DNA of 64,000 nucleotides from Bacteroidaceae bacterium (GTDB lineage: Bacteria; Bacteroidota; Bacteroidia; Bacteroidales; Bacteroidaceae): NCBI GenBank assembly GCA_017526905.1, contig JAFXQT010000090.1, forward strand, positions 6,927-70,926, written 5' to 3'. Each line of letters opens with the position of its first letter. Within the stretch, counting starts at the first letter, position 1. The position numbers were made by a program, and so were the translations under genes. This document shows, in pieces, positions 116 to 39,100 of this stretch. Below the pieces are notes generated by a model that made no database searches, was not told where the DNA came from, and was given only the letters and a program-made list of their open reading frames with translations.

Positions 116-3100
116 ATGACTTTTCTAAGGCAATATATACAAACCCTCAAACCATCCGTGCAGCAATTGGCATGCCTGTATGCCTATATCGGCGGCGACC
201 TCAAAGATGAGGACAAGACGCAGCTGGCTGTGCACGGTGTGTGCATGATGGGCGAACTGCAAATCATGACGGGCACCCTCCTGGACAGCACGATCATCGT
301 GCACCAGCCGGCCACCCACTTCGGCCCTGAGCAGCAGTTTATCCGCCCCAAATACTATGCTGAGGTCATGCTTTTTGCCATGGAGGAACACCCTGAGTGG
401 CTCAAGGATTTCGACAGCTGGCCACTGACACGCTACACGTCCATGAACAACTTGCAGAAAGCGGTGCGCATGTGCGCCGCCGGCAAGATGCCGCCCCCCA
501 TGTTGCTGGAAGCCGACATACCGCCCTATCTGATGGGATTTGCCCACGACAGGCGCTTCGAACCGCTCATCACGATGATCCGCGACGTGGACTTCCCCGC
601 CTTTATCAGTGCCTGCATCAAGAAATGGATTAAAGAGGACTTCAGCGATCCGGACGACGTACTGAAACACCAACTGTCCATGCGCAAGTTCGACACAAGC
701 GACCCCGACATCAAGGCGCTGCACGCCCTGGCCGGCTACTACCGCTATGTGTGCCAGGGGCAGTACACGCCACCCACCAGCATCCGAATGACCTTTTATG
801 ACCTGCTGCTGAAGGGCGTCCATGCCATGAGCCAAGGCAAGGCCGACCTGGCCGTGAAGGTGTTTGGCGAAGCCATCACCGCCACAAGCAAGAACGGCAG
901 CAACAAAGCCGAGAAGTTCCTGACCGATGGCGTTGCCGCACTGTTTTGGGTGGTAGCCACCTGGACCAGCAATACCAGCGACAACAAACAACGCCTGCAG
1001 ACGTTCTGCGTGCAGGCACGCGAAGGCAACTACCGCCGCGTCGGAACAGCCCTGCTGCTGGCCGAGATGCTGGTGCACCCGCTGCAACGCATCAACATGG
1101 ACCTGCTCACCGAACTGATTAACCCACAAAGCCTGGCCGACAAGGAATTCGTGTTCCAGCAGCAGATGGCCACCCTACTGGCTGCCCATTTCACTGGCTA
1201 CCAGATTTCGGCCGATACCTTCCAACCCCAGTCGGCTTTCCTACGTCATGAAGCAGCCGGGCTAATCAAGATGACGAAATATGAGAAGAAACTGCTGGAC
1301 GGCGTGTTCGGCAACAAGCCGCTCAGCAGTTTCATCCGTGCCAAGGCTCCCTGGGAGCTGATGCTGGACCGCCTCATCGCCACCGAGTCGCACCGTCAGG
1401 CACCGAGCGATGAGGGTGAGCACCGCGTTATGTACATCATTCTGAACGATGGCGAGAGCGTGGAACTGCGCGAGCAGAACCGCCTGCGCAGCGGCAAATG
1501 GGGCCTGGGCAAGGGGTTGCCATGGAGCCGTTTCATGAGCGGCAGCGAATCCTTCATGGACCGCGCCGACCAGGCCGTTGTGGCCGACCTGCGCTACCTG
1601 CAGGCCACACGTGTCACCGTGGGCGCCATCCTGCCCCACTTAGTGGGCAGCGACCGTGTATATACCGGCGAACAGACCCCCTTCCGCCGCGTCAACATCG
1701 AGGCCCAGCGCCCTTATGTCATTGTGGAGCGCACGACCGATGGCGGTTTCCACCTGCAGAGCAACGTGCAGTTCCAGGACATGCTCTCGCAGACCAATGT
1801 GTATCACCGCGAGGATTCCATGCACTACATCTTCTTCCCCATGAGCGACCGCGAACGCAGCGTGCTGCAGGAACTGCTCTCCGTGACCGACTTTCCCCCC
1901 GAAGCCGAAAGCCAGCTGCGCAAACTGCTGCCACTGATACGAAACGTCACCGACATACACTCCGACCTTATCGAGGACGAGCGCGAGCTGGAAACCATCA
2001 CCGGACAGACACCCATCCTCATCCGTCTGACGCCCGACCCCACCGCACAGACCATGTTCGATGCCTACGTGCTGGTGCGCCCCCTGCTTGGCGGCAAGAT
2101 GGCCCTGACACCGGGCCAAGGCGACAAGGTAATCATAGACGAGTGCGACAACGGGCGCTTCCGCGTGGAACGTGACATGGAAGGCGAGACATGCAACCTG
2201 GACACGCTGCTGGCATACACGCGCGAACATAAAATTGACTTCAACGAGAACCTAAACGGGCACTTGGGCACCGCACAGGTACTGGACCTGCTGGCCTTTG
2301 TCAGCTGCCATCAGGACATCTGTGCCGTGGAGTGGCCCGAGGGCGAAAAACTGCGTATGCACTCCACCACCAACGCAGACTGGAACATATCGCTGACCAG
2401 CCGCGGCCGGTGGTTTGAGATCGAAGGCGAGGTCAAACTCACCGACAACGCTGTGCTCAGCGCCCAGCAACTGCTGCAAGCCATCGGCAACAGCCATGGC
2501 GGCTACGTACAGCTGCAAAACGGCGACTACCTGTGGCTGAGCGAACGCATACGCCGCCAGCTGGATGCGTTGGAAAGCATCTCGACCACCGAGAACAACC
2601 GTCCGGCCATATCCACCCTGCAAACGGGTCTTCTGGCCGATATCCTGCACGGCGACATCGAGATAAAGCACGACGGCGAACTGGGCAACCTGAAACAACG
2701 CATTGAACAGGCCGACGACTGGCAGCCCACCGTGCCCGAACAACTCACCGCCACCCTCCGTCCCTATCAGACCGAAGGCTTCCAGTGGCTGATGCGCCTG
2801 GCATCATGGGGTGCCGGTGCCTGCCTGGCCGACGATATGGGTCTGGGCAAGACCGTGCAAACCATCGCTTTCCTGTTGGCACATGCGGACGAAGGCCCCT
2901 CACTGGTCGTTGCGCCCGCATCGGTGGTGAGCAACTGGCAAGCCGAACTGGGCCGCTTTGCACCCACCCTCACGTCCTACAACCTGAGCGACTACTACGA
3001 CCGCAAGCCCGTGGTCAAACAGGCATCGGCCCGCGATGTGGTGGTGTGCACCTATGGCCTGATCGTGTCGCAGGCCGAACTGCTGTGCAGCCGCAAGTGG

Positions 3101-6901: not shown

Positions 6902-8362
6902 TCAGCCCGGGAAGTGTATGGTAAATCGTGTGAGACGGTCAGTAGCATCCGTATGGAGGCTGAAGGTGCAGCCGTGGCCCGACAGAATGTCGCGTATGAG
7001 CAGCAGCCCAATTCCCTGCCCATTGGGTTTGGTGGAGAAGAAAGGGGTGAAGAGGTTCTGCGACACCGCCTCGGAGATGCCCTGGCCGTTGTCCGTGACC
7101 ACCAGCGTTTGGGCGGATGTAGCGATGCTGACCCAACCACCTTCTCGGTTACCTATGCTCTCCACACTGTTCTTGACAATATTGACCAGTACTTGCTGGA
7201 ACAGGACAGAATCCAAACGCACGGGAATGGCATCGTCCGTCAGGTTGAATTCCAACCGAACCCTATTGGAAAGGCAGAGGTTTTCCAGGAACATACGGCA
7301 GGCCTCCACCTCCTCGCTCAAGTCGCACAGTTGCAGCTGGGGAGGTGGCATCTTGACAACCTCAGCAAAACGGGTGACGAAGGCCGACATGGAGCGCAGG
7401 CGGGAAGTGAATGACGAACGTTCTTTTAATGACGAATGACGAGTGACGAATGATGAATTGTTTTCTAATGACGAATGACGAGTGACGAATGACGAATGAG
7501 AGTTACCTTCAGGATTGGAAAGTAACTTTGATTCGTCATTCCGAGCGAAGCGAGATTCGTCATTCGTCATTCCTTCTGATTCGTCATTTCGAGCGAAGCG
7601 AGATTCGTCATTCGTCATTCCCCCTGATTCGTCATTCGTCATTCCCCCTGATTCGTCATTCGTCATTCCTTGTTCCTCAAGCGCGCCTACGATGCCCGCC
7701 ACGCTATTGTTCACCTCATGAGCTATCATCCGGATTACACGCTCATAAGCCTCCTTCTCTGCCAGCCTTACCTCCGAAGTCAGCGACTCTATCAAGTAGA
7801 AAGGATGTTGGTAGCCACGGTCTGTGAATGACAAGTGGCTGATGCGGTAGATACCCGGTTCGCCCATCAGTCGCATGGTGGTTTCATTGCCAATAGGCAA
7901 ACGCTCCATTGCTTCGCGGATGAGCGGCGTCAGCATCTGTTTGGCCGCCGGATTCATTGAGGTGATATGGCCGTCCAAGTCGCACTGCACTACGCCCATA
8001 GGCGAGGCTTCGATTAGCAGACTGAGGAAGTTGTACTGCTCTACCAGGCTCAGGTGTTCGCTGCGCAAGCGGGCCAGCAGGGCATTGAACGTGCGCACAA
8101 TCACATCCGTTTCGTATTGCCCTGAAGGTGCCAGCCGTGTGCTCAGGTCAAGGTCACGTACCAGCTCCATCCCCCCAATCAGTGTGTCATAGGGCTTCAA
8201 AGTCCGCCTATAGAAATAAAACAGGTAGAAAAGCAGCAGCACAACGAAGCACTCGATTGCGTAGAACAAGCCCGGCCGGCTGCCAAACGACGCGTAAAGT
8301 GCCGCACCGCCCAGCAGCAATATAAACAACACGAGAATGAGGAAGTAGTGAAAGAGCTTCAT
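6902..8362 (-). CDS. sensor histidine kinase (two N-terminal TM helices, PAS-like, HisKA, HATPase_c) with a repeat-encoded insertion
   Basis: The N-terminus has two hydrophobic helices separated by a very short loop. It has an H-box (RMIAHEVNNSVAGIVGAL), an N-box (VLVNIVKNSVESI), G1 (DNGQGI) and G2 (GQGIGL). About 88 aa between the H-box helix and the next helix (MTNDESGGMTNDESGG...SFVTRHSSL) are encoded by repeat arrays at 7407-7669. Confidence 0.8.
   Translation of the reverse strand: MKLFHYFLILVLFILLLGGAALYASFGSRPGLFYAIECFVVLLLFYLFYFYRRTLKPYDTLIGGMELVRDLDLSTRLAPSGQYETDVIVRTFNALLARLRSEHLSLVEQYNFLSLLIEASPMGVVQCDLDGHITSMNPAAKQMLTPLIREAMERLPIGNETTMRLMGEPGIYRISHLSFTDRGYQHPFYLIESLTSEVRLAEKEAYERVIRMIAHEVNNSVAGIVGALEEQGMTNDESGGMTNDESGGMTNDESRFARNDESEGMTNDESRFARNDESKLLSNPEGNSHSSFVTRHSSLENNSSFVTRHSSLKERSSFTSRLRSMSAFVTRFAEVVKMPPPQLQLCDLSEEVEACRMFLENLCLSNRVRLEFNLTDDAIPVRLDSVLFQQVLVNIVKNSVESIGNREGGWVSIATSAQTLVVTDNGQGISEAVSQNLFTPFFSTKPNGQGIGLLLIRDILSGHGCTFSLHTDATDRLTRFTIHFPG
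7407..7669. repeat. inverted pair of AATGACG-type arrays inside the histidine kinase CDS
   Basis: The left arm (7407-7500) has AATGACG units. The right arm (7531-7669) has the reverse complement TTCGTCA, organised in 24- and 48-nt super-units that include CCGAGCGAAGCGAG. The centre is the hairpin AGTTAC...GTAACT. Confidence 0.9.
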
Positions 8363-8364
8363 TT

Positions 8365-8519
8365 ATGATGAATGACTAATGACTAATGACGAATGACGAA
8401 TGACTAATGACGAATGACGAAGGCTGCGATTAAGCGAGCAGAGAGTCAAACTTGTTTGAGCTATCCCGAGCGTGAGCAGGCTCGACCGAAGGTCAATGAC
8501 GAATGACGAGTGATGACGG
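8365..8519. repeat. AATGACK heptamer arrays flanking a 72-nt unique core (regulator/kinase intergenic)
   Basis: Arrays at 8365-8421 and 8494-8519, in the same orientation. Confidence 0.85.
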
Positions 8520-8522
8520 CTG

Positions 8523-9962
8523 CTACAGCCCGTGCTTCTCGATCTTCCTGTACAACGCACCGCGGCTGATACCCAGTTCCTTGGCCACGAGCGAGAGATT
8601 ACCGGCATTTTTCTGAATGGAGGTGGCTATAGCTGCACGCTCCAAATCGTCCAACGTGGCCCCCTCCCGTCCCCCGGCCGAGGGGGCCGGGGTATGGGAG
8701 GGGGCCTCGGGTGCTCCGGGAATGACTCTTGGATTGAAGTCTTTTCCCTCTCCCATCAGCAGCGTCCTTTCAACGAGGTTCTTCAGTTCGCGTATATTAC
8801 CGCTGAGAGGTAGTGTTTGCAAATAGGCTATGGCATCTGCTCCGACTACCGGCATAGGCAGCCTGTTTGTCGTGCAGGCCTGCTGCAGGAAATAGTCAAC
8901 AAGCAACGGGATGTCCCCCCGCCTCTCGCGCAAGGGCGGCAGATGCAGGCTGATGGTGTTGATGCGGTAGAAGAGGTCCTCGCGGAAGGTGTGCTCCGCC
9001 ACCATCGTCCGCAGGTCGGCATTGGTCGCGCAGACGACGCGGACGTCGGTGCGGCGTGTGCGGCTGTCGCCCAGCACCTCGTAAGTCTGATCCTGCAACA
9101 CGCGCAACAGCTTCACCTGACAGGCCAGGTCCAGTTCGCCTATCTCGTCCAAGAAGATCGTCCCGCCGTTGGCCAGTTCGAAGCGGCCCACACGGTCCTC
9201 CTTGGCGTCGGTGAACGACCCTTTCTTGTGGCCGAACATCTCGCTCTCGAAGAGCGACGAGGAGATGCCGCCGAGGTTCACCTTCACGAAGGGACCGTTG
9301 GCACGCCGGCTCTGACGGTGTATGGCCTCGGCTATCAGCTCCTTGCCCGTGCCGCTCTCACCCGTGATGAGGACGGGGGCGTTGGTGGGTGCGATGCGGG
9401 CAATGGTGGTGTAGATAGAGGCGAGGGAGGGCAGGGGAACACCCGAGCAAGCCCCCTCCCGTCCCCCCCGAGGGGAAGCCCCCTCTAAATCCCCCCGAGG
9501 GGGGACTTGCGTTTCCATTGGGATTCCAGAGGATATGGTCGCCCCCCCTCGGGGGGGACGGGAGGGGGCCGGGGGACGGGAGTGGGCCTCGGGGGCTACC
9601 TTTATCGCTGTTTCCACCCGCTCCACCAGTACGCCATTGTCCCACGGTTTCGTGATGAAGTCGAAGGCACCGGCGCGCATACCCTGTACGGCCAGGTCGA
9701 TGGAGCCCCAGGCAGTCATCAGGATGCACGGGACGTCGGGGCGGAACACCTTGACTTGCTTCAGCAGCGTAAGGCCTTCCTCACCGTCGGTGGACATATT
9801 GTAATTCATGTCCATCAGCACCAACTCCACGGCCGGCGTGTTGCGGACGATCCGTATGGCTTCCTTGGGGCCCTCAGCCAAGGCCACCTCATATCCGTTG
9901 CGCTCCAGTATGAGCTTCAGCGAGAGCCGGATGTTCTTATCGTCATCAACTACGAGAATCAT
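8523..9962 (-). CDS. sigma54-dependent (NtrC-family) response regulator
   Basis: REC domain (MILVVDDDKNIR...LVLMDMNY...ILMTAW). AAA+ sigma54-interaction domain (VLITGESGTGKE, ESEMFGHKKGSFTDA, GGTIFLDEIGEL). Fis-type HTH (NLSLVAKELGISRGALYRKIEKHGL). There are two GC-rich in-frame insertions: one in the REC-AAA+ linker and one before the HTH. Confidence 0.9.
   Translation of the reverse strand: MILVVDDDKNIRLSLKLILERNGYEVALAEGPKEAIRIVRNTPAVELVLMDMNYNMSTDGEEGLTLLKQVKVFRPDVPCILMTAWGSIDLAVQGMRAGAFDFITKPWDNGVLVERVETAIKVAPEAHSRPPAPSRPPRGGATISSGIPMETQVPPRGDLEGASPRGGREGACSGVPLPSLASIYTTIARIAPTNAPVLITGESGTGKELIAEAIHRQSRRANGPFVKVNLGGISSSLFESEMFGHKKGSFTDAKEDRVGRFELANGGTIFLDEIGELDLACQVKLLRVLQDQTYEVLGDSRTRRTDVRVVCATNADLRTMVAEHTFREDLFYRINTISLHLPPLRERRGDIPLLVDYFLQQACTTNRLPMPVVGADAIAYLQTLPLSGNIRELKNLVERTLLMGEGKDFNPRVIPGAPEAPSHTPAPSAGGREGATLDDLERAAIATSIQKNAGNLSLVAKELGISRGALYRKIEKHGL
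8658..8706. repeat. 49-bp GC-rich imperfect palindrome inside the response-regulator CDS
   Basis: GGCCCCCTCCCGTCCCCCGGCC / GGCCGGGGTATGGGAGGGGGCC. It is translated in-frame as APSHTPAPSAGGREGA just before the HTH. Confidence 0.8.
9451..9569. repeat. 119-bp GC-rich element inside the response-regulator CDS (contains a 99-bp unit shared with 11981-12080)
   Basis: Terminal inverted repeats GCCCCCTCCCGTCCCCCCCG / CGGGGGGGACGGGAGGGGGC. The internal 9470-9568 differs from 11981-12080 by one substitution and one C in a C-run, by my manual alignment. Confidence 0.85.
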
Positions 9963-10064
9963 TATGGTATATACGTATTATCTTATCTGCCCCTTTGAGT
10001 CTGAAGGTACAGGAGGGACTTTTCCTCGGGGGCCTTTCTTTCATGAGCCTCATTGTTTATGCTG

Positions 10065-10072
10065 CAAAGATA
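10065..10072 (-). promoter_or_regulatory. Bacteroidota -7 promoter box (TAnnTTTG)
   Basis: Minus strand reads TATCTTTG, ~100 nt upstream of the response-regulator ATG (9962). Confidence 0.55.
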
Positions 10073-10210
10073 GTCAATAAAGGCAATCCAACAAATTTAT
10101 TTCCAAGAAAGGGTGTATTCAGCCGATATCTTTTAAGATTCAAGCAGAAATCTGTACCTTCTTGAGCATGAATTTGCCCTGTGCAGTAATGCGTCACTGT
10201 TCACTGACGA

Positions 10211-10236
10211 GCATCCGCTGAAACGGATTGCTTTTT
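10211..10236 (+). terminator. hairpin plus T-run (terminator-like) with no annotated gene upstream
   Basis: GCATCCG-ctgaaa-CGGAT(T)GC followed by TTTTT on the plus strand. Confidence 0.4.
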
Positions 10237-10274
10237 GGAGTGATAGAGCATGCCAGCGGCAACTTATATTTTTC

Positions 10275-10550
10275 ATTCAAGTTTCGCAAACGATGCCGTA
10301 GGCATTAGATATTGGTTCTTCGAAGTGTCGAAGCGTCCAGAGGCCGAGCGGCCAGCCATTCCTATGGCTGGTAATGTGCATGATATAGGATAGCGTGCCT
10401 TTAGGTACGCGATATCATTTGCGGTCGCATACCTAAAGGCATGCTTTATGTTGCCGCCATTTAACCAGCCACAGGAATGGCTGGCTACCAATGTCAAGCC
10501 CCTTTGGGGCTTTGGTTCACAGCGAATTAGCATACTTGCGAAACTTGAAT
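10275..10550. repeat. 276-bp long imperfect palindrome (MITE- or structured-RNA-like)
   Basis: 15-bp perfect termini: ATTCAAGTTTCGCAA (10275-10289) and TTGCGAAACTTGAAT (10536-10550). Matching internal blocks: CCAGCCATTCCTATGGCTGG (10352-10371) with CCAGCCACAGGAATGGCTGG (10465-10484), and TGCCTTTAGGTACGCGA (10396-10412) with TCGCATACCTAAAGGCA (10425-10441). Confidence 0.8.
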
Positions 10551-10554
10551 TATT

Positions 10555-10597
10555 CACTTTTCACTCTTTCACTTTTCACTCTTTACTTTTCACTCTC
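10555..10597. repeat. tandem array CACTYTT
   Basis: CACTTTTCACTCTTTCACTTTTCACTCTTTACTTTTCACTCTC. It encodes the HlyD C-terminus (...KEKLRVKSKE). Confidence 0.85.
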
Positions 10598-11913
10598 AGT
10601 TTCTCCTTCCCTTTGTACTTCGTCATATCGCTGACCACAAGCTGTTCGCCTTCGCTAAGTCCACTGACGACCTCGATGTAGTCATAGTTGCACTCGCCCA
10701 GCTGCACCTCGCGTGGCACGAGGGTCTCATCGTCCTTGAATACATATAAGGTGTACTTTCCGGGTCCAGCATAGAACGAGCCGTTGCGGATGCGGAGGGC
10801 GTCGTCCTTGATGCTGGTGATGACGTAAACCTCGGCGCGCAGCCCTGAGCGCAGGCGGGGATGGCTCATGTCATCGGGCACCACGGTGAAGGTGATGGCG
10901 CCACTTTGGCTCATGGGCGTGACGGTGTTGATGGTGCCCGCAAGGCGCTCCTTGCCGATGCGCAGTACGACGGCTCCTCCGACGCGGACTCGTTCGCTGT
11001 AGCTGTCGGAGATCTCACACTCGGCCTTGAAGTGCGTGAGGTCGCTCACCACGGCTATCTTCTGTCCGGCGCCGACGGTGCTGCCCACCTCGCTGTTGAT
11101 GTAGGTCAGCGTGGCGCGGCGCGGCGAGCGTATCTTGGCATCGTCGAGGGTGCGGCGCTTCTCGTCGAGCCCTTTCTCGAAGATATTGTTCTGCAGTTGC
11201 TGCATCCGCAGGTCGGCTTGCCGCACGCGCTGCTCGTTGCGGTACTGCTGGCGCAGCTGCGACAGTTGCAGCTGGGCGGTGCGCAGGGTGGTCTCGGCCT
11301 GCCGCACGCGGTCGCGTGTGCCGGAGCCGAGGCTGTCGAGGTAGAGCTCGTTGCGCAGCTGGGCTTCGAGCTGTGAGAGTTTCATCTCTTCCACCTCAAT
11401 CTGCATACGGCGGTCGGCGAGCTGTGTCTCTGTGTTGGCCTGCAGCTGTGCTGTCTGCTGCCTACGTATCTCGCGTTCGTCGAGCGCCTTGGCGTAATCG
11501 GTCTCGGCCGACTGCAGGTCGAGGCGCAGCAGCGGAGTGCCCACGTCCACGCTGTCGCCGCTGTGGGCATAGACCTCCAGGATCTGCGAGCTGATGGGCG
11601 ACACGATAATCTCCTCGAAGGCGGGCACGACGCGTCCCGTGGCCGTGACGCTGACATCGATGGTGCCGCGGTCCACCTCGGAGATGACGAGCGCCTTGCG
11701 GTCGAGGGCCGTCACCATCTGTGAGCCGAGCCAAGCGCCTGCGCCCAGCACGATGAGTATGGCGCCTACCAACTTTCCTATTCTCAACAGCTTATTGCGC
11801 CGTTGTACATTGACGGGGATGGCTCGGTCCATGGAAGAGGAGGACTCTCCCCCCCGCCCCTCCCTATGAGGGAGGGGAGTAGGATGTTTAAGGCTAGATG
11901 TATTCGTTTCCAT
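10576..11913 (-). CDS. HlyD-family membrane fusion (periplasmic adaptor) protein
   Basis: 445-aa ORF with an N-terminal TM anchor (LLRIGKLVGAILIVLGAGAWL), a long coiled-coil (QLADRRMQIEVEEMKLSQLEAQLRNE...) and barrel/lipoyl-like flanks. An alternative ATG at 11832 (MDRAIPV) would exclude the repeat-derived N-terminus. Confidence 0.85.
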   Translation of the reverse strand: METNTSSLKHPTPLPHREGRGGESSSSMDRAIPVNVQRRNKLLRIGKLVGAILIVLGAGAWLGSQMVTALDRKALVISEVDRGTIDVSVTATGRVVPAFEEIIVSPISSQILEVYAHSGDSVDVGTPLLRLDLQSAETDYAKALDEREIRRQQTAQLQANTETQLADRRMQIEVEEMKLSQLEAQLRNELYLDSLGSGTRDRVRQAETTLRTAQLQLSQLRQQYRNEQRVRQADLRMQQLQNNIFEKGLDEKRRTLDDAKIRSPRRATLTYINSEVGSTVGAGQKIAVVSDLTHFKAECEISDSYSERVRVGGAVVLRIGKERLAGTINTVTPMSQSGAITFTVVPDDMSHPRLRSGLRAEVYVITSIKDDALRIRNGSFYAGPGKYTLYVFKDDETLVPREVQLGECNYDYIEVVSGLSEGEQLVVSDMTKYKGKEKLRVKSKE

Positions 11914-12118
11914 TTTGTTTAATTGTCATTTAATCTGTTTACAATTCTTGAAAGGTATTTGCTCCCTCCCTCGCTCGGCTGAGGGGAAGCCCCCTCTAAA
12001 TCCCCCCGAGGGGGGACTTGCGTTTCCATTGGGAATCCAGAGGATATGGTCGCCCCCCCCTCGGGGGGGACGGGAGGGGGCTTCCCCTACAGGGAGGGCG
12101 GGGGGAGAGTCCGATTCT
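11842..12118. repeat. composite GC-rich palindromic element (type a) at the TolC/HlyD junction with a nested 100-bp unit
   Basis: Inner arm: GGACTCTCCCCCCCGCCCCTCCCtatgAGGGAGGGGAG (11842-11883). Outer arm: GGGAGGGCGGGGGGAGAGTCCG (to 12118). The nested unit is 11981-12080. The HlyD ATG (11913) lies inside the element and the TolC stop (12087) lies in the outer arm. Confidence 0.8.
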
Positions 12119-13574
12119 CAATAAAGTCCCATAGTGCGATGCTGCGCAACTGGTAGTAGTAGAGCCAGTAGTTGTAGAGTTGCGCTATGCGGCTGAGGCG
12201 TGCCTGGTCCTTGGCTGTCTGTGCGTCGGAGAGCTCGAGAGTCGAGATGCTGCCGATCTTGAAGGTCTCTACGTTCGTGTGATAGCGGCGCTGGGCGATG
12301 GTGTCGGCCTCGATGGCTATGCGCAGCTGCTCGGCCTGATTGTTGAACTGCTCGGTCAGTACGAAGATGTCCTGACGGAACTCCTGTGCCTGCTTGCGCA
12401 GCTGCCCACGCACAATCTCGCGGTTGCTCTCGGCCAGCCGCCGCTGTCCCTTGCGCTTGCCCCAGTCGAGGATAGGCACAGTGAAGCCTACCTGCACCAC
12501 CTCCTTGCTCAGCAGGTCGCGATAGGCGCCGCCCACCGAGGTGCCCGTACCCGTGTAGCCCAGTTGGGCATAGAGGTTGATGCTCTGTCGGTTGGCACGC
12601 GCCACAGCCACAGAGTAGTCGGCCTCCAACTGCCGCCGACGTATGGTCGTGGCATGAGCGTTGTTCTCGAGGGCATGGCTGAGAACGTCGTCATAGTTCA
12701 GCCGCACATCAGGGACGCCTTCTGGCACGATGGGCACGATATCCGCCTCCACATCCAGGAACGAGCGCAGGGCGAACTGGCGGGCTTGGCAGGTGCTCTC
12801 GCTGTTGGTCAGGGCGCTGCGAGCCGTGAGCATATCCAGTCGCAGCTGCAGCACATCGTTCTCGCTGATGCTGCCCATCTGGCGCTTGGCCAGAGCCACC
12901 TCGTAGAGCTTCTCGGCTGTCTGCAGATTCTGACGTGCAATGCCCACCTGCTCGATGGCCATCAGGAGATTGAAGAAATGGTTGATAGCCTGCATCGCCA
13001 CCTCCTCCGTCTCGGTGAGGAAGCGCGCCTGTGCCTCGCGGTAGCGAAGGGGTTCCAACCGCCGGCTCCACTTTACGTGGTTCACGCCGAAGAGCGGCTG
13101 CGAGAGGGTTACGGCAACGGGCAGCGACATAAGTTGGTTAAGCCCACCCCCAGCCCCTCCCTGGGGAGTGGAGTTTTGAAACTGATGAAGGAAGTCGAGT
13201 GATGATTCAATGGTGAGCGTGCCGCCCGTGGGCCATATCTTCTGCGTCACATAGAGCGAACCGTTCAGGCCTAAGTAGTCGTTGCGCACGAACGAGACGC
13301 CGCCGTCGGCCTGCTGATAGCTGGTATAGCGCTTGTTGTAGCTGGGCAGGGTGGCCGATAATGACACTTCCGGCAGCAGGTCGGCACGGTAGCTGCGCCA
13401 CTGCCAGTAGGCCGACTGCAGTTCGCCCCGCGCCACGGCAGCCTCCACGCTCTGGTTGCGCGCCATGGTGATACATTCATCGAGGCTCAGCCGCAGCGTG
13501 TCCTGCGCCAAGGTCGTGAGCCCTGCACAGGCAGTGAATGAGGCGATGATGATAATTCTTTTGACCATTTTCAT
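12087..13574 (-). CDS. TolC-family outer membrane efflux protein
   Basis: 495-aa ORF with a signal peptide (MKMVKRIIIIASFTACAGLTTLAQ). The two-repeat TolC-like sequence has the typical start LSLDECITMARNQSVEAAVARGEL. The C-terminal residues RTLPPPSL are encoded by a GC-rich repeat arm. Confidence 0.85.
   Translation of the reverse strand: MKMVKRIIIIASFTACAGLTTLAQDTLRLSLDECITMARNQSVEAAVARGELQSAYWQWRSYRADLLPEVSLSATLPSYNKRYTSYQQADGGVSFVRNDYLGLNGSLYVTQKIWPTGGTLTIESSLDFLHQFQNSTPQGGAGGGLNQLMSLPVAVTLSQPLFGVNHVKWSRRLEPLRYREAQARFLTETEEVAMQAINHFFNLLMAIEQVGIARQNLQTAEKLYEVALAKRQMGSISENDVLQLRLDMLTARSALTNSESTCQARQFALRSFLDVEADIVPIVPEGVPDVRLNYDDVLSHALENNAHATTIRRRQLEADYSVAVARANRQSINLYAQLGYTGTGTSVGGAYRDLLSKEVVQVGFTVPILDWGKRKGQRRLAESNREIVRGQLRKQAQEFRQDIFVLTEQFNNQAEQLRIAIEADTIAQRRYHTNVETFKIGSISTLELSDAQTAKDQARLSRIAQLYNYWLYYYQLRSIALWDFIENRTLPPPSL
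13142..13172. repeat. solo type-b arm inside the TolC CDS
   Basis: GCCCACCCCCAGCCCCTCCCTGGGGAGTGGAG, translated as TPQGGAGGGL. Confidence 0.75.
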
Positions 13575-35853: not shown

Positions 35854-36053
35854 CGTCATTTTGTAAACATAGCGAAAAGAGCAGGCTTAGTTTCTTAGTT
35901 GCAATAACGCGCAAGTTATAGATTGTTACCATATACACAATTATCAATTACAAATTAAAAAGAAATACAGATTGTAACAAACAATATGTAACAAGCAACA
36001 AAATAAATACACTTAAATAGGGCCCCTTCCATTGCCAGAAAAACGAAAGTTTG

Positions 36054-36061
36054 TACCTTTG
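36054..36061 (+). promoter_or_regulatory. Bacteroidota -7 promoter box (TAnnTTTG)
   Basis: TACCTTTG, 46 nt upstream of the gltB ATG at 36107. Confidence 0.6.
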
Positions 36062-36106
36062 CAGCGATTTACAAAAAGAAAGCACAAACTTTGTTTTATA
36101 AGCAAA

Positions 36107-39100
36107 ATGATAAAGGATAACGGACTATACAGACACGACATGGAGCACGACGCCTGCGGCGTAGGAATGGTCGTAAATATCCATGGTGGCAAGAGCCACG
36201 AACTGGTGGATCAGGCGCTGCGGGTGCTGGAGCACATGCAGCACCGCGGTGCCGAGGGCGCCGACAACAAGACGGGCGACGGTGCCGGCATCATGATTCA
36301 GATACCCCATGAGTTCATACTCCTGCAGGGCATCCCTGTTCCCGAGAAAGGACATTATGGCACGGGGCTGGTCTTTCTGCCTAAGGACGAAAGGGCACAA
36401 GACGCTCTGCTTGCAATCATCAGCGAAGAGACGGAACGCGAAGGGCTGAAGCTCGCCCATGTGCGCACCGTTCCGACAAATCCCGACTGTCTCGGCACCA
36501 CCGCCCTCAGCAGCGAACCTTCCATCAAGCAGCTGTTCATAACAGGAGAGAGCGACGAACCGACCGACAGCCTCGCGCGTACATTATATATTATACGCAA
36601 GCACGTGGAGCGACGTGTTCGCGAACTCGCAACACAGAGTCCCGCCTACGACGCATTCTACATCTGCTCGCTGAGCAACACAAACATCATCTATAAAGGC
36701 ATGCTGACCAGCATACAGCTGCGACAGTATTTCACGGACCTGCAAAGTCCTTATCTGACAAGCGGACTGGCGCTGGTGCACTCACGTTTCAGCACAAACA
36801 CCTTCCCCACGTGGGCACTGGCCCAGCCCTTCCGTCTGTTGGCACACAACGGCGAAATCAACACCATCCGCGGCAACCGCCTCTGGATGCAGGCGCGAGA
36901 GAGTGTGCTGCACTCCACGGTCTTGGGCGAGGCGTCGGACATAGCACCCATCATCGAACCGGACATGAGCGATTCGGCCTCGCTGGACAATGTGCTGGAA
37001 TACCTCGTCATGGCCGGCCTATCGCTACCGCACGCCATGAGCGTGCTCGTGCCGGAGTCGTTCAACGACAAGAACCCCATCAGCCCTGAGCTGAAGGCCT
37101 TCTATGAATACCACTCCATTCTGATGGAGCCGTGGGACGGTCCGGCGGCCCTGCTTTTCTCCGACGGACGTTACGCCGGCGGTATGCTCGACCGCAACGG
37201 CCTGCGCCCGGCACGCTACGCCATCACAAAGAACGGCATGATGATCGTGGCATCGGAGGTTGGCGTGATAGATTTCGATCCTGGCAAGATAGCCGAGAAA
37301 GGGCGCCTGCAACCAGGCAAGATACTGCTCATCGACACCCAAGAGGGCCGTATCTACTACGACGGCGAGGTGAAGCGACAGCTGGCGGCTGCGCACCCCT
37401 ACGGGCAGTGGCTCTCAACCAACCGCGTCCAGCTGGAAAAGCTGAAGAGCGGCCGTAAGGTGGAAAACGGGCTCCCCGACTTGCAACAGAAGGAGGCGCT
37501 CTTCGGCTACGGTGCCGAAGACATAGACGCCACCATCATACCCATGGCGACGAAGGGCCAGGAGCCCACGGCATCGATGGGCAACGACACGCCGCTGGCT
37601 GTACTGAGCGAGCGCCCGCAGGTGTTCTTCAACTATTTCCGCCAGCAGTTTGCGCAGGTGACAAACCCGGCCATTGACTCCATTCGCGAGGAACTTGTGA
37701 TGAGCCTCACGGAATATATCGGGCGCGTAGGAACGGGCATATTGAGCCCCGACGAGACGAACTGTAAGATGGTGCGTCTGCCCCACCCCATCCTGACCGG
37801 CACGCAGCTGGACATGCTATGCAACATCGGCTACAAGGGGTTCAAGACAATTAAGTTGACATTAGCCCACCCCCAGCCCCTCCCCAAGGGAGGGGAGACT
37901 GATTGGTCTCTGGCTGGTGAAAACCTTAGGATAGCATTGGACAAACTCTGCAAGGATGCAGAACAGGCAGTGGATGATGGTTATAATTACATTATTCTGA
38001 CGGACAAGGAATGCCCCTCCGCCGGGGAGGGGATGAGATGGGCTTACATCCCCTCGCTCCTGGCCGTCTCGGCCGTCCACCACTATCTCATCCGCGCCGG
38101 CAAGCGTGTGCAGACGGCGCTCATCGTAGAGTCCGGCGAGATCCGCGAGACGATGCACGCTGCCCTGCTGCTGGGCTACGGAGCCTCGGCCCTGTGCCCC
38201 TATATGGTTTACGCCATTCTCGACGACCTGGTCAGGCGCGGAAAGATTCAGGAGGACTACGCCAACGCCGAGGCCAACTACATCAAGGCTGTGAAAAAAG
38301 GACTGTTCAAGATCATGGCCAAGATGGGCATCTCGACCATCCGCAGCTATCGCGGTGCCAAGATCTTCGAGGCTGTAGGCCTGAGCGAAGAGGTGCTGAG
38401 AACCTACTTCGGCACGGAAGTGAGCACGATTGGTGGTGCCGGCCTCGAGAAGATTGCCAGCGATGCCATCCGCAGGAAGGAAGGGAATGAAGCGCTAAAG
38501 GACAACGGCCAGTTCCACTGGCGGCGCGATGGCATCCGGCATGCCTGGAACCCCGAGACGATAGCACGCCTGCAGCTGGCCTGCCGCACAGGGTCGTACG
38601 AGAAGTTCAAGGAGTGGGCGCGGCTGGTCGACGAGAAGCAGCAGCCCATCTTCCTCCGCGACTTGTTGGCTCCTGCTACGACAGAAACGGGAAAGGCAGG
38701 TGCCATCCCCCTTGACGAGGTCGAACCAGAGGAGGAAATCATGAAGCACTTCGTGGCTGGCGCCATGAGCTTCGGTGCCCTGAGCAAAGAGGCCCACGAG
38801 GCCATATGCCTGGCTATGAACAAGATCGGCGGACGTTCCAACACCGGCGAGGGCGGTGAGGATCCGTCACGCTTCCACGCCACCATCGACGGCATCAGCC
38901 TCAACAGCAAGACGAAGCAAGTGGCCAGCGGGCGCTTCGGCGTCACGACGGAATATCTCGCTAACGCCGAGGAGATACAGATCAAGGTGGCCCAGGGCGC
39001 CAAGCCTGGCGAAGGCGGTCAGCTGCCGGGCTTCAAGGTGAATGAGGTCATTGCCCGCACGCGCCACAGCATACCCGGCATATCGCTCATCTCGCCACCG

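Follow-up and report, generated by a model that had tools for sequence, protein, structure and literature searches.

The window, a 64,000-nucleotide stretch from the draft genome (79% complete) of an uncultured rumen Prevotella-like bacterium, contains a gene whose product is predicted to be an NtrC-family sigma-54 activator. The protein combines a REC domain (Response_reg, residues 2-117), an AAA+ sigma-54 interaction domain (Sigma54_activat, 179-339, and AAA_lid_14, 345-416) and a Fis-type HTH (HTH_8, 436-476), all with Pfam scores far over the cut-offs, and its GAFTGA-like loop reads GSFTDA. Two tracts of this regulator, residues 123-171 and 420-435, are derived from palindromic repeats, and both lie between Pfam domains. 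The features of the locus are collected in Table 1.

Table 1. Regulator gene, repeat-derived segments and intergenic copy in the window
Feature	Position	Strand	Description
NtrC-family sigma-54-dependent response regulator (predicted)	8523..9962	-	479 aa, intact open ORF (ORF list, translation, Pfam)
Core-less palindrome (two end units)	8655..8709	-	AAA-lid/HTH linker; encodes APSHTPAPSAGGREGA, residues 420-435
Solo end unit X'	9450..9476	-	27 nt, 9 codons; encodes SPRGGREGA, residues 163-171
Palindromic element X-core-Y'	9477..9569	-	93 nt, 31 codons, in frame; encodes APSRPPRGGATISSGIPMETQVPPRGDLEGA, residues 132-162
Unit Z	9570..9596	-	27 nt; encodes APEAHSRPP, residues 123-131
REP2 host hairpin	11961..12112	.	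GCTCCCTCCCT-loop-AGGGAGGGCGGGGGGAGAGTCC; copy B lies in its loop
Intergenic copy B	11971..12088	-	118 nt, between the tolC-like stop and the hlyD-like start
Predicted insert-derived peptides			GGATISSGIPMETQVPPR and GGTCVSIGIPEDMVAPPR

The tract between the REC and AAA+ domains includes a palindromic stretch of 119 nt (9451-9569) bounded by perfect 25-nt terminal inverted repeats (9451-9475 and 9545-9569). The initial annotation had placed here a translated 119-bp element with terminal repeats of about 19 bp; its length, its position between the Pfam borders and the open frame across it all held, and only the repeats had to be redrawn as longer and perfect. The 25-mer end, allowing up to three mismatches, occurs three times in the window and not once in 100 shuffles. 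Judging from the alignment of copies, the 93-nt X-core-Y' segment is the mobile unit common to different loci, and the 119-nt stretch is this unit plus one solo 27-nt end unit. X and Y' are hairpin-forming ends of about 25 nt, imperfect inverted repeats of each other, on either side of a core of about 42 nt. The X' unit pairs with the X end of the element to give the perfect 25-nt inverted repeat, and the direct repeat has a period of 27 nt. The adjoining Z unit resembles the second linker (89% identity between 8680-8715 and 9562-9597). Of the alleles, only those of the window and P0002 have it; P0003 and P0004 lack it despite having the same second linker.

Four of the six reading frames of the element are free of stop codons, and folding of family members gives a single long imperfect GC-rich hairpin. 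The regulator translation across the insert includes APEAHSRPPAPSRPPRGGATISSGIPMETQVPPRGDLEGASPRGGREGACSG, which contains the peptide quoted in the initial annotation. From the open frame, the inserts would be translated as Pro/Gly/Arg/Ser/Glu-rich peptide, which is probably disordered. An AlphaFold2 model of the regulator, built on a 16-sequence alignment, was too poor for fold comparison (mean pLDDT 51, pTM 0.31), and in this same low-confidence model no helix or strand is predicted at residues 123-179 and 404-436.

The linker before the Fis-type HTH had been annotated with a translated 49-bp palindrome, an observation borne out by the repeat search and the Pfam borders. Its 25-nt arms (8655-8679 and 8685-8709) are 88% complementary. 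Alleles of the sister clade (clade 2) have in this same linker a full 92-nt X...X' element, reading CCCCCCTCCCGTCTACCCCGAGGGGGGGCGAACATATCC...GGGACGGGAGGGGGC. Allele comparison thus marks the 49-nt palindrome as a core-deleted remnant of the full family member that the sister clade has kept.

Orthologues of the regulator span 440 to 533 aa in length. The more distant ones have REC/AAA+ linkers of only about 22-45 aa, without the segment, and the P0001-type segment is missing beyond the two closest clades. The insert is absent in P0008, P0016, P0034 and P0089 and in the orthologues of G005, G017 and G022. The segment is therefore not conserved protein sequence, and its recurrence in unrelated genes of other congeneric species upholds the earlier suggestion of an insertion. 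A search of the orthologues turned up no clean empty site for the genic copy; the closest element-free allele, P0008, has other repeat-like sequence at the corresponding place. A wider search for regulator alleles, with a degenerate 20-mer from the flank against metagenome contigs, returned eight unrelated chance matches.

A second copy of the element, copy B, lies in the neighbouring efflux operon and points the same way along it as the genic copy. Between 9470-9569 and 11981-12081 there is one substitution (T at 9524 versus A) and one extra C in the intergenic copy (C7 versus C8), for 98% identity over 101 columns, which reproduces the near-identity noted at first. The idea that this copying was recent also stood up. 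Copy B is present in two conspecific assemblies, the window and L015, and precisely absent from a third, L013, where the empty site reads GCTCCCTCCC-TA-ACAGGGAGGG and forms an intact short hairpin. Comparison of the filled and empty alleles indicates that 118 nt have taken the place of the 2-nt hairpin loop TA, with no target-site duplication at this one exact site, and no defined target motif for the element was found. The receiving hairpin belongs to a family, REP2, with 33 copies in the genome; its canonical form is seen in the empty allele, and one of its arms also encodes the final codons of the TolC-like ORF.

Over the length of the element copy B has 94 nt rather than 93. The initial annotation had taken this one-nucleotide difference to be what keeps the regulator in frame. 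The length difference is real, although it does not mark a special adaptation of the genic copy: in an alignment of 15 genic copies, consisting of the regulator alleles and nine other genes from related species, 14 are exactly 93 nt long and the remaining diverged allele is 1 nt shorter. On this alignment, the excess nucleotide of copy B is drift of an untranslated copy and not a genic adaptation. An assembly error in the C-run is unlikely, as the genic run has an identical length, in both orientations, in independent assemblies from ENA (P0002, P0005, P0006), Logan (P0003) and JGI (P0004).

Only two full copies of the element occur in this draft genome, at 79% completeness. Seven further genomes of the genus have full family copies, and 36 of 179 genomes have short end units; in all, about 20 further copies were located in other genes and genomes. 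Members of the 93-nt family are in frame in genes for an FtsX/MacB permease, a FAD oxidoreductase, a cobalamin adenosyltransferase, a CobD/CobQ fusion, a PspC protein, an M16 peptidase, a TonB receptor and UvrA, and diverged relatives (72-76% identity) are in frame in ArgRS and PurL. The copy-bearing genes have long open frames, with the expected Pfam domains on either side of the insert, and one oxidoreductase has two family copies in opposite orientations, each in frame. In the genome studied here, end units also occur inside ArgC, a histidine kinase and ValRS. Matches to the exact Y unit were confined to ruminant Prevotellaceae/Bacteroidaceae metagenome-assembled genomes (MAGs). Counting only perfect GC-rich hairpins with a stem of at least 9 nt proved too strict to capture these families.

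The ends of the element recur around nuclease-like genes. The genome encodes five DUF559 proteins, each gene lying between inverted GC-rich hairpin ends. In the congeneric genomes G005 and G060, two cassettes (L099, G005:C8; L110, G060:C9) have the structure X, about 500 nt with a DUF559 ORF (PF04480, 116 bits), X', and their ends are 97-100% identical to the X/X' of the window over 28-37 nt. Just inside the ends, cassette and miniature alike read X then GGGCGA, and TCGCC then X'. Beyond these roughly 6 nt on each side, the interiors are only weakly alike; the cassette on C49 matches positions 42-91 of the element profile weakly with its 3' end (E about 0.003). The link of the element to DUF559 cassettes, as suggested by these sequences, would rest on the common ends. 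The REP2-type hairpin also flanks DUF559 genes on C66 and C58. The sites of DUF559 cassettes, at junctions of conserved genes or within such genes, are recurrent; one is the ispG|cysS junction in three species. No RAYT/Y1 transposase (PF01797) was identified in the 79% complete genome, with positive controls, and no recombinase gene occurs within 8.5 kb upstream of the regulator or in the adjacent downstream efflux operon. DUF559, Vsr and a homing endonuclease have been assigned to one PD-(D/E)XK superfamily (PMC3424549).

On balance we favor, with considerable confidence, the view that the inserts are a translated mobile repeat resembling the Rickettsia palindromic elements (RPEs), probably derived from a nuclease cassette and changing rapidly through inversion, slippage of units and ectopic copying. 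We hypothesize that the element is a gene-less miniature of a DUF559 cassette. It could be copied by break-induced, homology-primed (homing-like) repair or by recombination between similar hairpin arms, and would often land in the loop of a hairpin repeat already in place; if copying proceeds by break repair, the lack of a target duplication at the insertion would be explained. The element might change its orientation when its own pair of 25-nt inverted repeats, Y and Y', recombines or allows template switching, and slippage between the 27-nt direct repeats might add or remove units. Since four of six frames are stop-free, in-frame insertions would survive in permissive loops and inter-domain linkers. 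The inserts would then be close to neutral, carried along in a flexible linker that tolerates changes of length, and no designed part of the regulator.

The alleles of the regulator give an indication of how quickly the linker changes. Alleles of one species that are about 98% identical have at least four linker architectures, which differ in core orientation and in the number of 27-nt units. The architectures across the alleles compared are Z-X-c-Y'-X' in the window and P0002 (and identically in the independent assembly L015), Y-X-c-Y'-X' in P0005, Y-c'-X'-Y'-X' in P0004, Y-c'-X'-Y' in P0003 and Y-c'-X'-X' in P0006. Both core orientations are found in each of two clades (identity 97.5-98.5% within and 90% between them), and the orientation states were recovered again in independent assemblies. 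In silico inversion of the Y..Y' interval of P0005 yields P0004 save for a few substitutions. The idea of two independent inversions was downgraded: a T/A core difference accompanies orientation in both clades, so a single old inversion with allele exchange is inseparable from recurrent inversion.

A possible but less probable account of these alleles dispenses with inversion in situ. The linker would be a hot site at which the element is repeatedly replaced, through ectopic gene conversion or re-insertion from other copies, and a donor could be copied in either orientation because the element ends are inverted repeats. Several observations point this way. Compared with conspecific alleles whose flanks are 98% identical, P0004 shows 3-4 differences over the roughly 42 core positions, and its element is identical at 92 of 92 positions to a copy that another species has in a different gene. 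The element of P0007 is much more diverged than that of its 98%-identical sister P0005, and copy B itself arose by copying into the hairpin loop of another repeat. At one position of the FAD oxidoreductase gene, near-identical alleles are empty or have any of three or four different elements; replacement or re-insertion must therefore be common and may explain some of the orientation differences. Against replacement as the whole explanation, Y-X-c-Y'-X' and its exact inversion product Y-c'-X'-Y'-X' are both found with outer units and flanks unchanged, a pair that a fresh insertion is not expected to recreate, and P0003 and P0006 are only one core substitution away from the forward alleles.

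The same inversion pair raises the idea of a programmed intragenic inverton, in which a site-specific invertase that recognizes Y/Y' or X/X' would flip the core reversibly in a population and the linker would read APSRPPRGGATISSGIPMETQV... or APSKSPRGGTCVSIGIPEDMVA..., giving two regulator isoforms. The Y/Y' and X/X' repeats lie wholly inside the regulator ORF, which is open either way among the roughly 98%-identical alleles of both clades. Invertons that recode part of a gene are known in Bacteroides (10.1101/2023.03.11.532203), and DUF559 genes are over-represented among predicted programmed inversions (PMC9881135). Each orientation is nonetheless recovered consistently from many independent contigs (11 of the P0007 type and 9 of the P0006 type), and the surroundings, with the efflux operon downstream, offer no recombinase gene over the interval given above. 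What would be recoded is a linker predicted to be unstructured, in which a functional difference is not obvious. The family also occurs in many housekeeping genes, in both orientations at different sites, which fits passive tolerance, and we consider programmed switching unlikely.

It is very unlikely that the palindromes are selected nucleic-acid structures, such as an mRNA stabilizer, a terminator, a translational pause site or a protein-binding cruciform. REP-like hairpins at intercistronic junctions affect mRNA stability, and both the long GC-rich hairpin fold and the location of copy B in such a junction would suit a role of this kind. A consensus fold of 12 family members is indeed a long hairpin, but it lacks covariation support (covariation term +1.16; 1 of 24 pairs compensatory), and the structured-RNA reading was dropped on this account. 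An Rfam scan of 8000-12500 with permissive thresholds matched no family and gave only chance matches to miRNA-hairpin models, far below gathering scores. Presence and orientation moreover vary among conspecific strains, and the many unrelated host genes have no common regulatory logic. Linkers of NtrC-type regulators are variable and often of low complexity, but an ordinary Pro/Gly-rich linker evolved in place, with its symmetry and second copy due to coincidence or assembly artefact, is refuted by the shuffle test (no perfect 25-nt inverted repeat expected by chance), the 98% copy 2.4 kb away, the family alignment with copies in other genes and genomes, and the identical L015 assembly, and we give it practically no credence.

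Within the favored reading of a translated, cassette-derived mobile repeat, a bolder version can be offered tentatively. The elements may be the non-autonomous offspring of an undescribed class of mobile element, small DUF559 cassettes with GC-rich, translatable hairpin ends that would insert by homing at gene junctions and in hairpin loops in rumen Prevotellaceae, and the miniatures may be self-inverting, giving the linker two in-frame peptides and possibly flipping within populations. If so, this would be an intragenic inverton made from selfish DNA. The common ends point to a concrete candidate for the mobilizing enzyme, and its confirmation would give a function to the very widespread DUF559.

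Selfish DNA within protein-coding genes, best documented in Rickettsia, would also be present, at high turnover, in a free-living and ecologically important gut and rumen lineage. The modularity in multiples of three, together with four readable frames of six, would make the repeats a natural generator of variation in linker length and sequence in regulators, tRNA synthetases and repair proteins. They enlarge and diversify the proteins of Prevotellaceae MAGs and can mislead orthology clustering, domain annotation and inverton callers.

We found no published description of this repeat family. Its closest analogue is the RPEs, which PMC10969869, relaying Ogata et al. (2000), describes as palindromes of about 100-150 bp that lie in frame in many unrelated, often housekeeping genes, are translated, are tolerated in permissive protein parts and are polymorphic between related genomes. 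The regulator family is likewise short (about 100 nt), palindromic, in frame in unrelated open genes and missing in orthologues. It differs in its hosts, rumen anaerobes of the Bacteroidota, and in its very GC-rich composition with runs of C and G; no sequence resemblance was noticed, and we regard it as an analogue and not a member. Rickettsia genomes are AT-rich. Further differences are the modular build from a 93-nt unit and 27-nt solo units, all multiples of three, the occurrence of both orientations at one site among conspecific strains, and the ends in common with DUF559 nuclease cassettes. To our knowledge, RPEs have no identified autonomous partner.

The recoding intragenic invertons of Bacteroides have inverted repeats within a coding sequence, and flipping alters a short stretch of the protein without loss of frame (Chanin et al., 10.1101/2023.03.11.532203). 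The present host belongs to the same order, Bacteroidales, and the arrangement of repeats inside a coding sequence that is open in both orientations is shared. Here it is differences between strains, and not among members of one population, that point to inversion; the segment belongs to a mobile-repeat family with dispersed copies and recodes a predicted disordered linker, and no invertase is implicated.

Like REP/REPIN-RAYT systems and MITEs, the family consists of short non-autonomous repeats that form hairpins or are bounded by terminal inverted repeats, are presumed to be mobilized in trans and show nested insertions. REP/REPIN-RAYT systems differ from it by their Y1/RAYT transposase, which this genome appears to lack. 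With classical MITEs it shares terminal inverted repeats (the 25-nt X and Y' or X' ends), whereas the single exact empty site, that of copy B, lacks a target-site duplication, and the ends are common to DUF559 nuclease cassettes and not to an IS, with no transposase partner seen; we know of no DDE transposase partner for this family. In contrast to the extragenic placement of REPs and MITEs, copies here are mostly within genes, and the candidate partner is a PD-(D/E)XK (Vsr-like, DUF559) nuclease.

The DUF559 cassettes themselves are comparable to free-standing or intron-borne genes for homing endonucleases of the Vsr-like PD-(D/E)XK group (PMC3424549, group 58), being small nuclease genes at recurrent sites. 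They differ in that no intron or intein is involved and in that the DUF559 nuclease is putative. At their ends the cassettes have GC-rich inverted hairpins, which are translated in the frame of the neighbouring genes, and they have counterparts in gene-less miniatures such as the one in the regulator.

The sigma-54 regulator gene contains two repeat-derived segments (residues 123-171 and 420-435), each lying between Pfam domains. The first is a palindrome in the linker between the REC and AAA+ domains (linker 1), whose terminal repeats had been put at about 19 bp in the initial annotation and are in fact perfect over 25 nt. At up to 3 mismatches, the window contains three occurrences of this 25-mer, versus 0 in 100 shuffles. 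Positions 9470-9569 differ from the intergenic copy at 11981-12081 (copy B) by one substitution and one additional C, the C being in the intergenic copy. Apart from the terminal-repeat length, the initial description is correct, including the near-identical copies, the second palindrome before the HTH and the inter-domain location of both insertions. A low-confidence structure model predicts neither helix nor strand for residues 123-179 and 404-436, as would fit disordered segments carried as passive passengers.

Features of the window and linker-1 architectures of regulator alleles (X and Y, end units of about 25 nt; X' and Y', their reverse complements; c, core; c', reverse complement of c; Z, extra 27-nt unit)
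Feature	Position	Strand or clade	Description
Regulator gene	8523-9962	minus	open ORF, 479 aa
Regulator domains	residues: Response_reg 2-117; Sigma54_activat 179-339; AAA_lid_14 345-416; HTH_8 436-476		Pfam
Linker-1 palindrome	9451-9569		perfect 25-nt terminal inverted repeats, 9451-9475 and 9545-9569
Second palindrome	arms 8655-8679 and 8685-8709		25 nt each, 88% complementary
Copy B	between TolC-like stop (12087-12089) and HlyD-like start		intergenic
Window, P0002		clade 1	Z-X-c-Y'-X' (coding strand)
P0004		clade 1	Y-c'-X'-Y'-X'
P0003		clade 1	Y-c'-X'-Y'
P0005		clade 2	Y-X-c-Y'-X'
P0006 (and genome G060)		clade 2	Y-c'-X'-X'
P0007		clade 2	diverged X-c-X'
P0008		clade 2	no element

Unit X is GCCCCCTCCCGTCCCCCCCGAGGGG (peptide APSRPPRG; PRGGREGA from X') and unit Y is GCCCCCTCTAAATCCCCCCGAGGGG (APSKSPRG; PRGDLEGA from Y'), and the end units recur with a period of 27 nt, or nine codons. 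The segment common to different loci is X-core-Y', with 93 nt or 31 codons. We aligned 17 copies, comprising 15 genic copies, copy B and a copy in the congeneric genome G060 that is apparently intergenic, judged by its flanks (L054, contig C63). The segment measures exactly 93 nt in 14 of the 15 genic copies, the diverged P0007 allele being 1 nt short over the aligned segment, and intergenic copy B has 94 nt over the element. Stops occur in only two of the six frames of the 119-nt stretch, in each case solely at the centre of the Y unit (TAAAT / ATTTAG). The element folds into a single long imperfect hairpin; folding of the family gave no covariation support for it, and comparison with Rfam families gave no match.

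Alignment of orthologous regulators (440 to 533 aa, with length differences confined to the two linkers) bears out the view of the segment as an insertion: orthologues of 70-80% identity do not have it, and many have repeat-derived peptides of other kinds in those positions. Copies beyond the two in the window were found in genes of other genomes. In the genome studied here, a draft MAG (2.8 Mb, 57.5% GC, 79% complete), the regulator and copy B are the only full copies. In-frame pieces of end units occur there in three other genes, encoding an ArgC-type dehydrogenase, ValRS and a histidine kinase, the last between the expected DHp region and HATPase_c, the only domain detected by Pfam. Seven other genomes of the genus have full copies, and 36 of 179 have short units; among 185,579 species representatives, the exact Y unit matched only ruminant Prevotellaceae/Bacteroidaceae MAGs. 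Nearly all full copies keep the frame of a long ORF whose expected domains are found on both sides of the copy. Genes with in-frame 93-nt members encode an FtsX/MacB permease, an FAD oxidoreductase, a cobalamin adenosyltransferase, a CobD/CobQ fusion, a PspC protein, an M16 peptidase, a TonB receptor and UvrA; more diverged relatives (72-76% identity) keep the frame of ArgRS and PurL. Pfam domains flank at least four of these ten copies (CobD/CobQ, UvrA, ArgRS and PurL), and others are at or near domain edges. One oxidoreductase has two family members, oppositely oriented and each in frame.

In the ValRS (contig C69, 990 aa), repeat-derived peptides occur at about five separate places (SSLTGRAGGES, EAPLSSSEGDTYAPSAANNGIEAPSGAVEGAS, ISPLPTSPRGGDY, LEAPSGAVGEGATS and RPLPEGGVEAL). 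On that contig, a second histidine kinase (35990-36190) has three, one of them a Y' unit (VPSRGDLEGA). Partner kinases of the orthologous regulators in genomes G017 (locus L003) and G005 (locus L002) have repeat-derived SPLKGENTGEGSLPLREGRGGSGSWGGSGG and PSRPTPNPSRKGGESS…PSLTGGVGGGS, respectively, within the ATPase domain region.

With linkers masked, the DNA of seven close regulator homologues falls into two clades (97.5-98.5% identity within, 90% between). In silico inversion of the Y..Y' interval of P0005 yields P0004; a few substitutions separate the two, as does one 6-nt indel that lies outside the element. The reversed alleles encode APSKSPRGGTCVSIGIPEDMVAPPRGGREGA, which is what the window's own element gives when read on the plus strand, and the remaining forms would be derivable by loss of single 27-nt units. 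The Z unit, confined to the window and P0002, is a near-copy of second-linker sequence, and was therefore probably gained by conversion between the two linkers. In the second linker, between AAA-lid and HTH, where the window has its 49-nt palindrome, the sister clade and P0008 have a full 92-nt X...X' member. This insertion is thus older than the split of the two clades, and in the window's lineage it was subsequently cut down to its two ends.

A single old inversion together with allele exchange is a viable account of the orientation states, since the same T/A core difference goes with orientation in both clades alike. Some orientation changes may also be due to overwriting by copies from elsewhere. 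The P0004 core is unlike its conspecifics at 3-4 positions, and the P0004 element is identical (92/92) to the copy in another species' FtsX/MacB permease gene. Near-identical alleles of an FAD oxidoreductase likewise have the same two positions empty or occupied by one of several unrelated elements. These loop positions are hot sites of very rapid turnover, and elements at such sites are thus also overwritten from elsewhere. Across G060 and its relatives (L052 / P0137-P0145), the two loops hold nothing or three to four unrelated repeat families, nested combinations included. Possibly the regulator linker houses a designed switch. An assembly artefact is ruled out as the source of the orientation difference, because every linker-1 state recurs in independent assemblies and the end repeats, at 25-27 nt, are spanned by longer assembly k-mers.

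The proposal that copy B was recently copied is supported by an exact empty site, GCTCCCTCCC-TA-ACAGGGAGGG, on the conspecific contig L013. The empty site belongs, as a canonical member, to a second hairpin family with 33 copies in the genome, and in the window and the conspecific assembly L015, 118 nt occupy that hairpin's loop, with no target duplication between filled and empty sites. This points to a preference for insertion within an existing hairpin; in the oxidoreductase, similarly, an element stands in place of another repeat's middle. In more distantly related orthologous operons, tolC and hlyD meet at a plain, repeat-free junction. With the TolC-like frame taken from the window, the contig being truncated, L013:1-80 (compared with window 11913-12112) has no stop before the HlyD-like ATG (…CTG TTA GGG AGG GAG … AAA ATG GAA ACG). 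The window and L015 have a TolC-like stop (TAG or TAA) at the hairpin/element junction. The L013 allele could encode a TolC-HlyD fusion or use an alternative upstream stop.

Other repeats surround the regulator. A 276-nt nested palindrome with internal hairpins and perfect 15-nt termini (ATTCAAGTTTCGCAA / TTGCGAAACTTGAAT) lies between the regulator and hlyD (10275-10550) and shares no sequence relationship with the X/Y family. Tandem heptamer arrays, of AATGACG type and TTCACTTTTCACTCT (8365-8516 and 10553-10596), sit immediately next to the kinase and hlyD-like stop codons and are the genome's most over-represented 14-mers, with 60-85 copies.

A search of the 79%-complete genome for a Y1/RAYT transposase found none. 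Each of its five DUF559 (PF04480) genes is flanked by inverted GC-rich hairpin ends, two of the second family, two X/Y-like and one of a third type. The ispG|cysS junction of two congeneric genomes has cassettes containing a 120-aa DUF559 ORF; their ends, X on the left and X' on the right, are 97-100% identical to the window element over 28-37 nt. Given the shared inverted ends, the element is most simply a miniature derivative of such a cassette that lacks the gene, and the DUF559 nuclease may be what moves it. The PD-(D/E)XK superfamily groups DUF559 with Vsr and a group I intron homing endonuclease (PMC3424549), and DUF559 genes are reported to be 14-fold enriched at predicted programmed inversions (PMC9881135). 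DUF559 cassettes occupy the ispG|cysS junction in three species with differing end types (G000:C49:603-1440; L099, G005:C8; L110, G060:C9), their upstream ends in frame with ispG and their downstream ends giving cysS an ATG (MET… / MNT…).

The finding is real. The best reading of the element is an RPE-like mobile palindrome, translated and undergoing rapid rearrangement, lodged in permissive linkers of a regulator that is itself intact. We found no description of such translated palindromes in Bacteroidota. The closest parallel is the Rickettsia palindromic elements (RPEs), in-frame palindromes in varied genes (PMC10969869); the present family behaves alike, which suggests RPE-like translated in-frame insertion in genes of a Bacteroidota genus.
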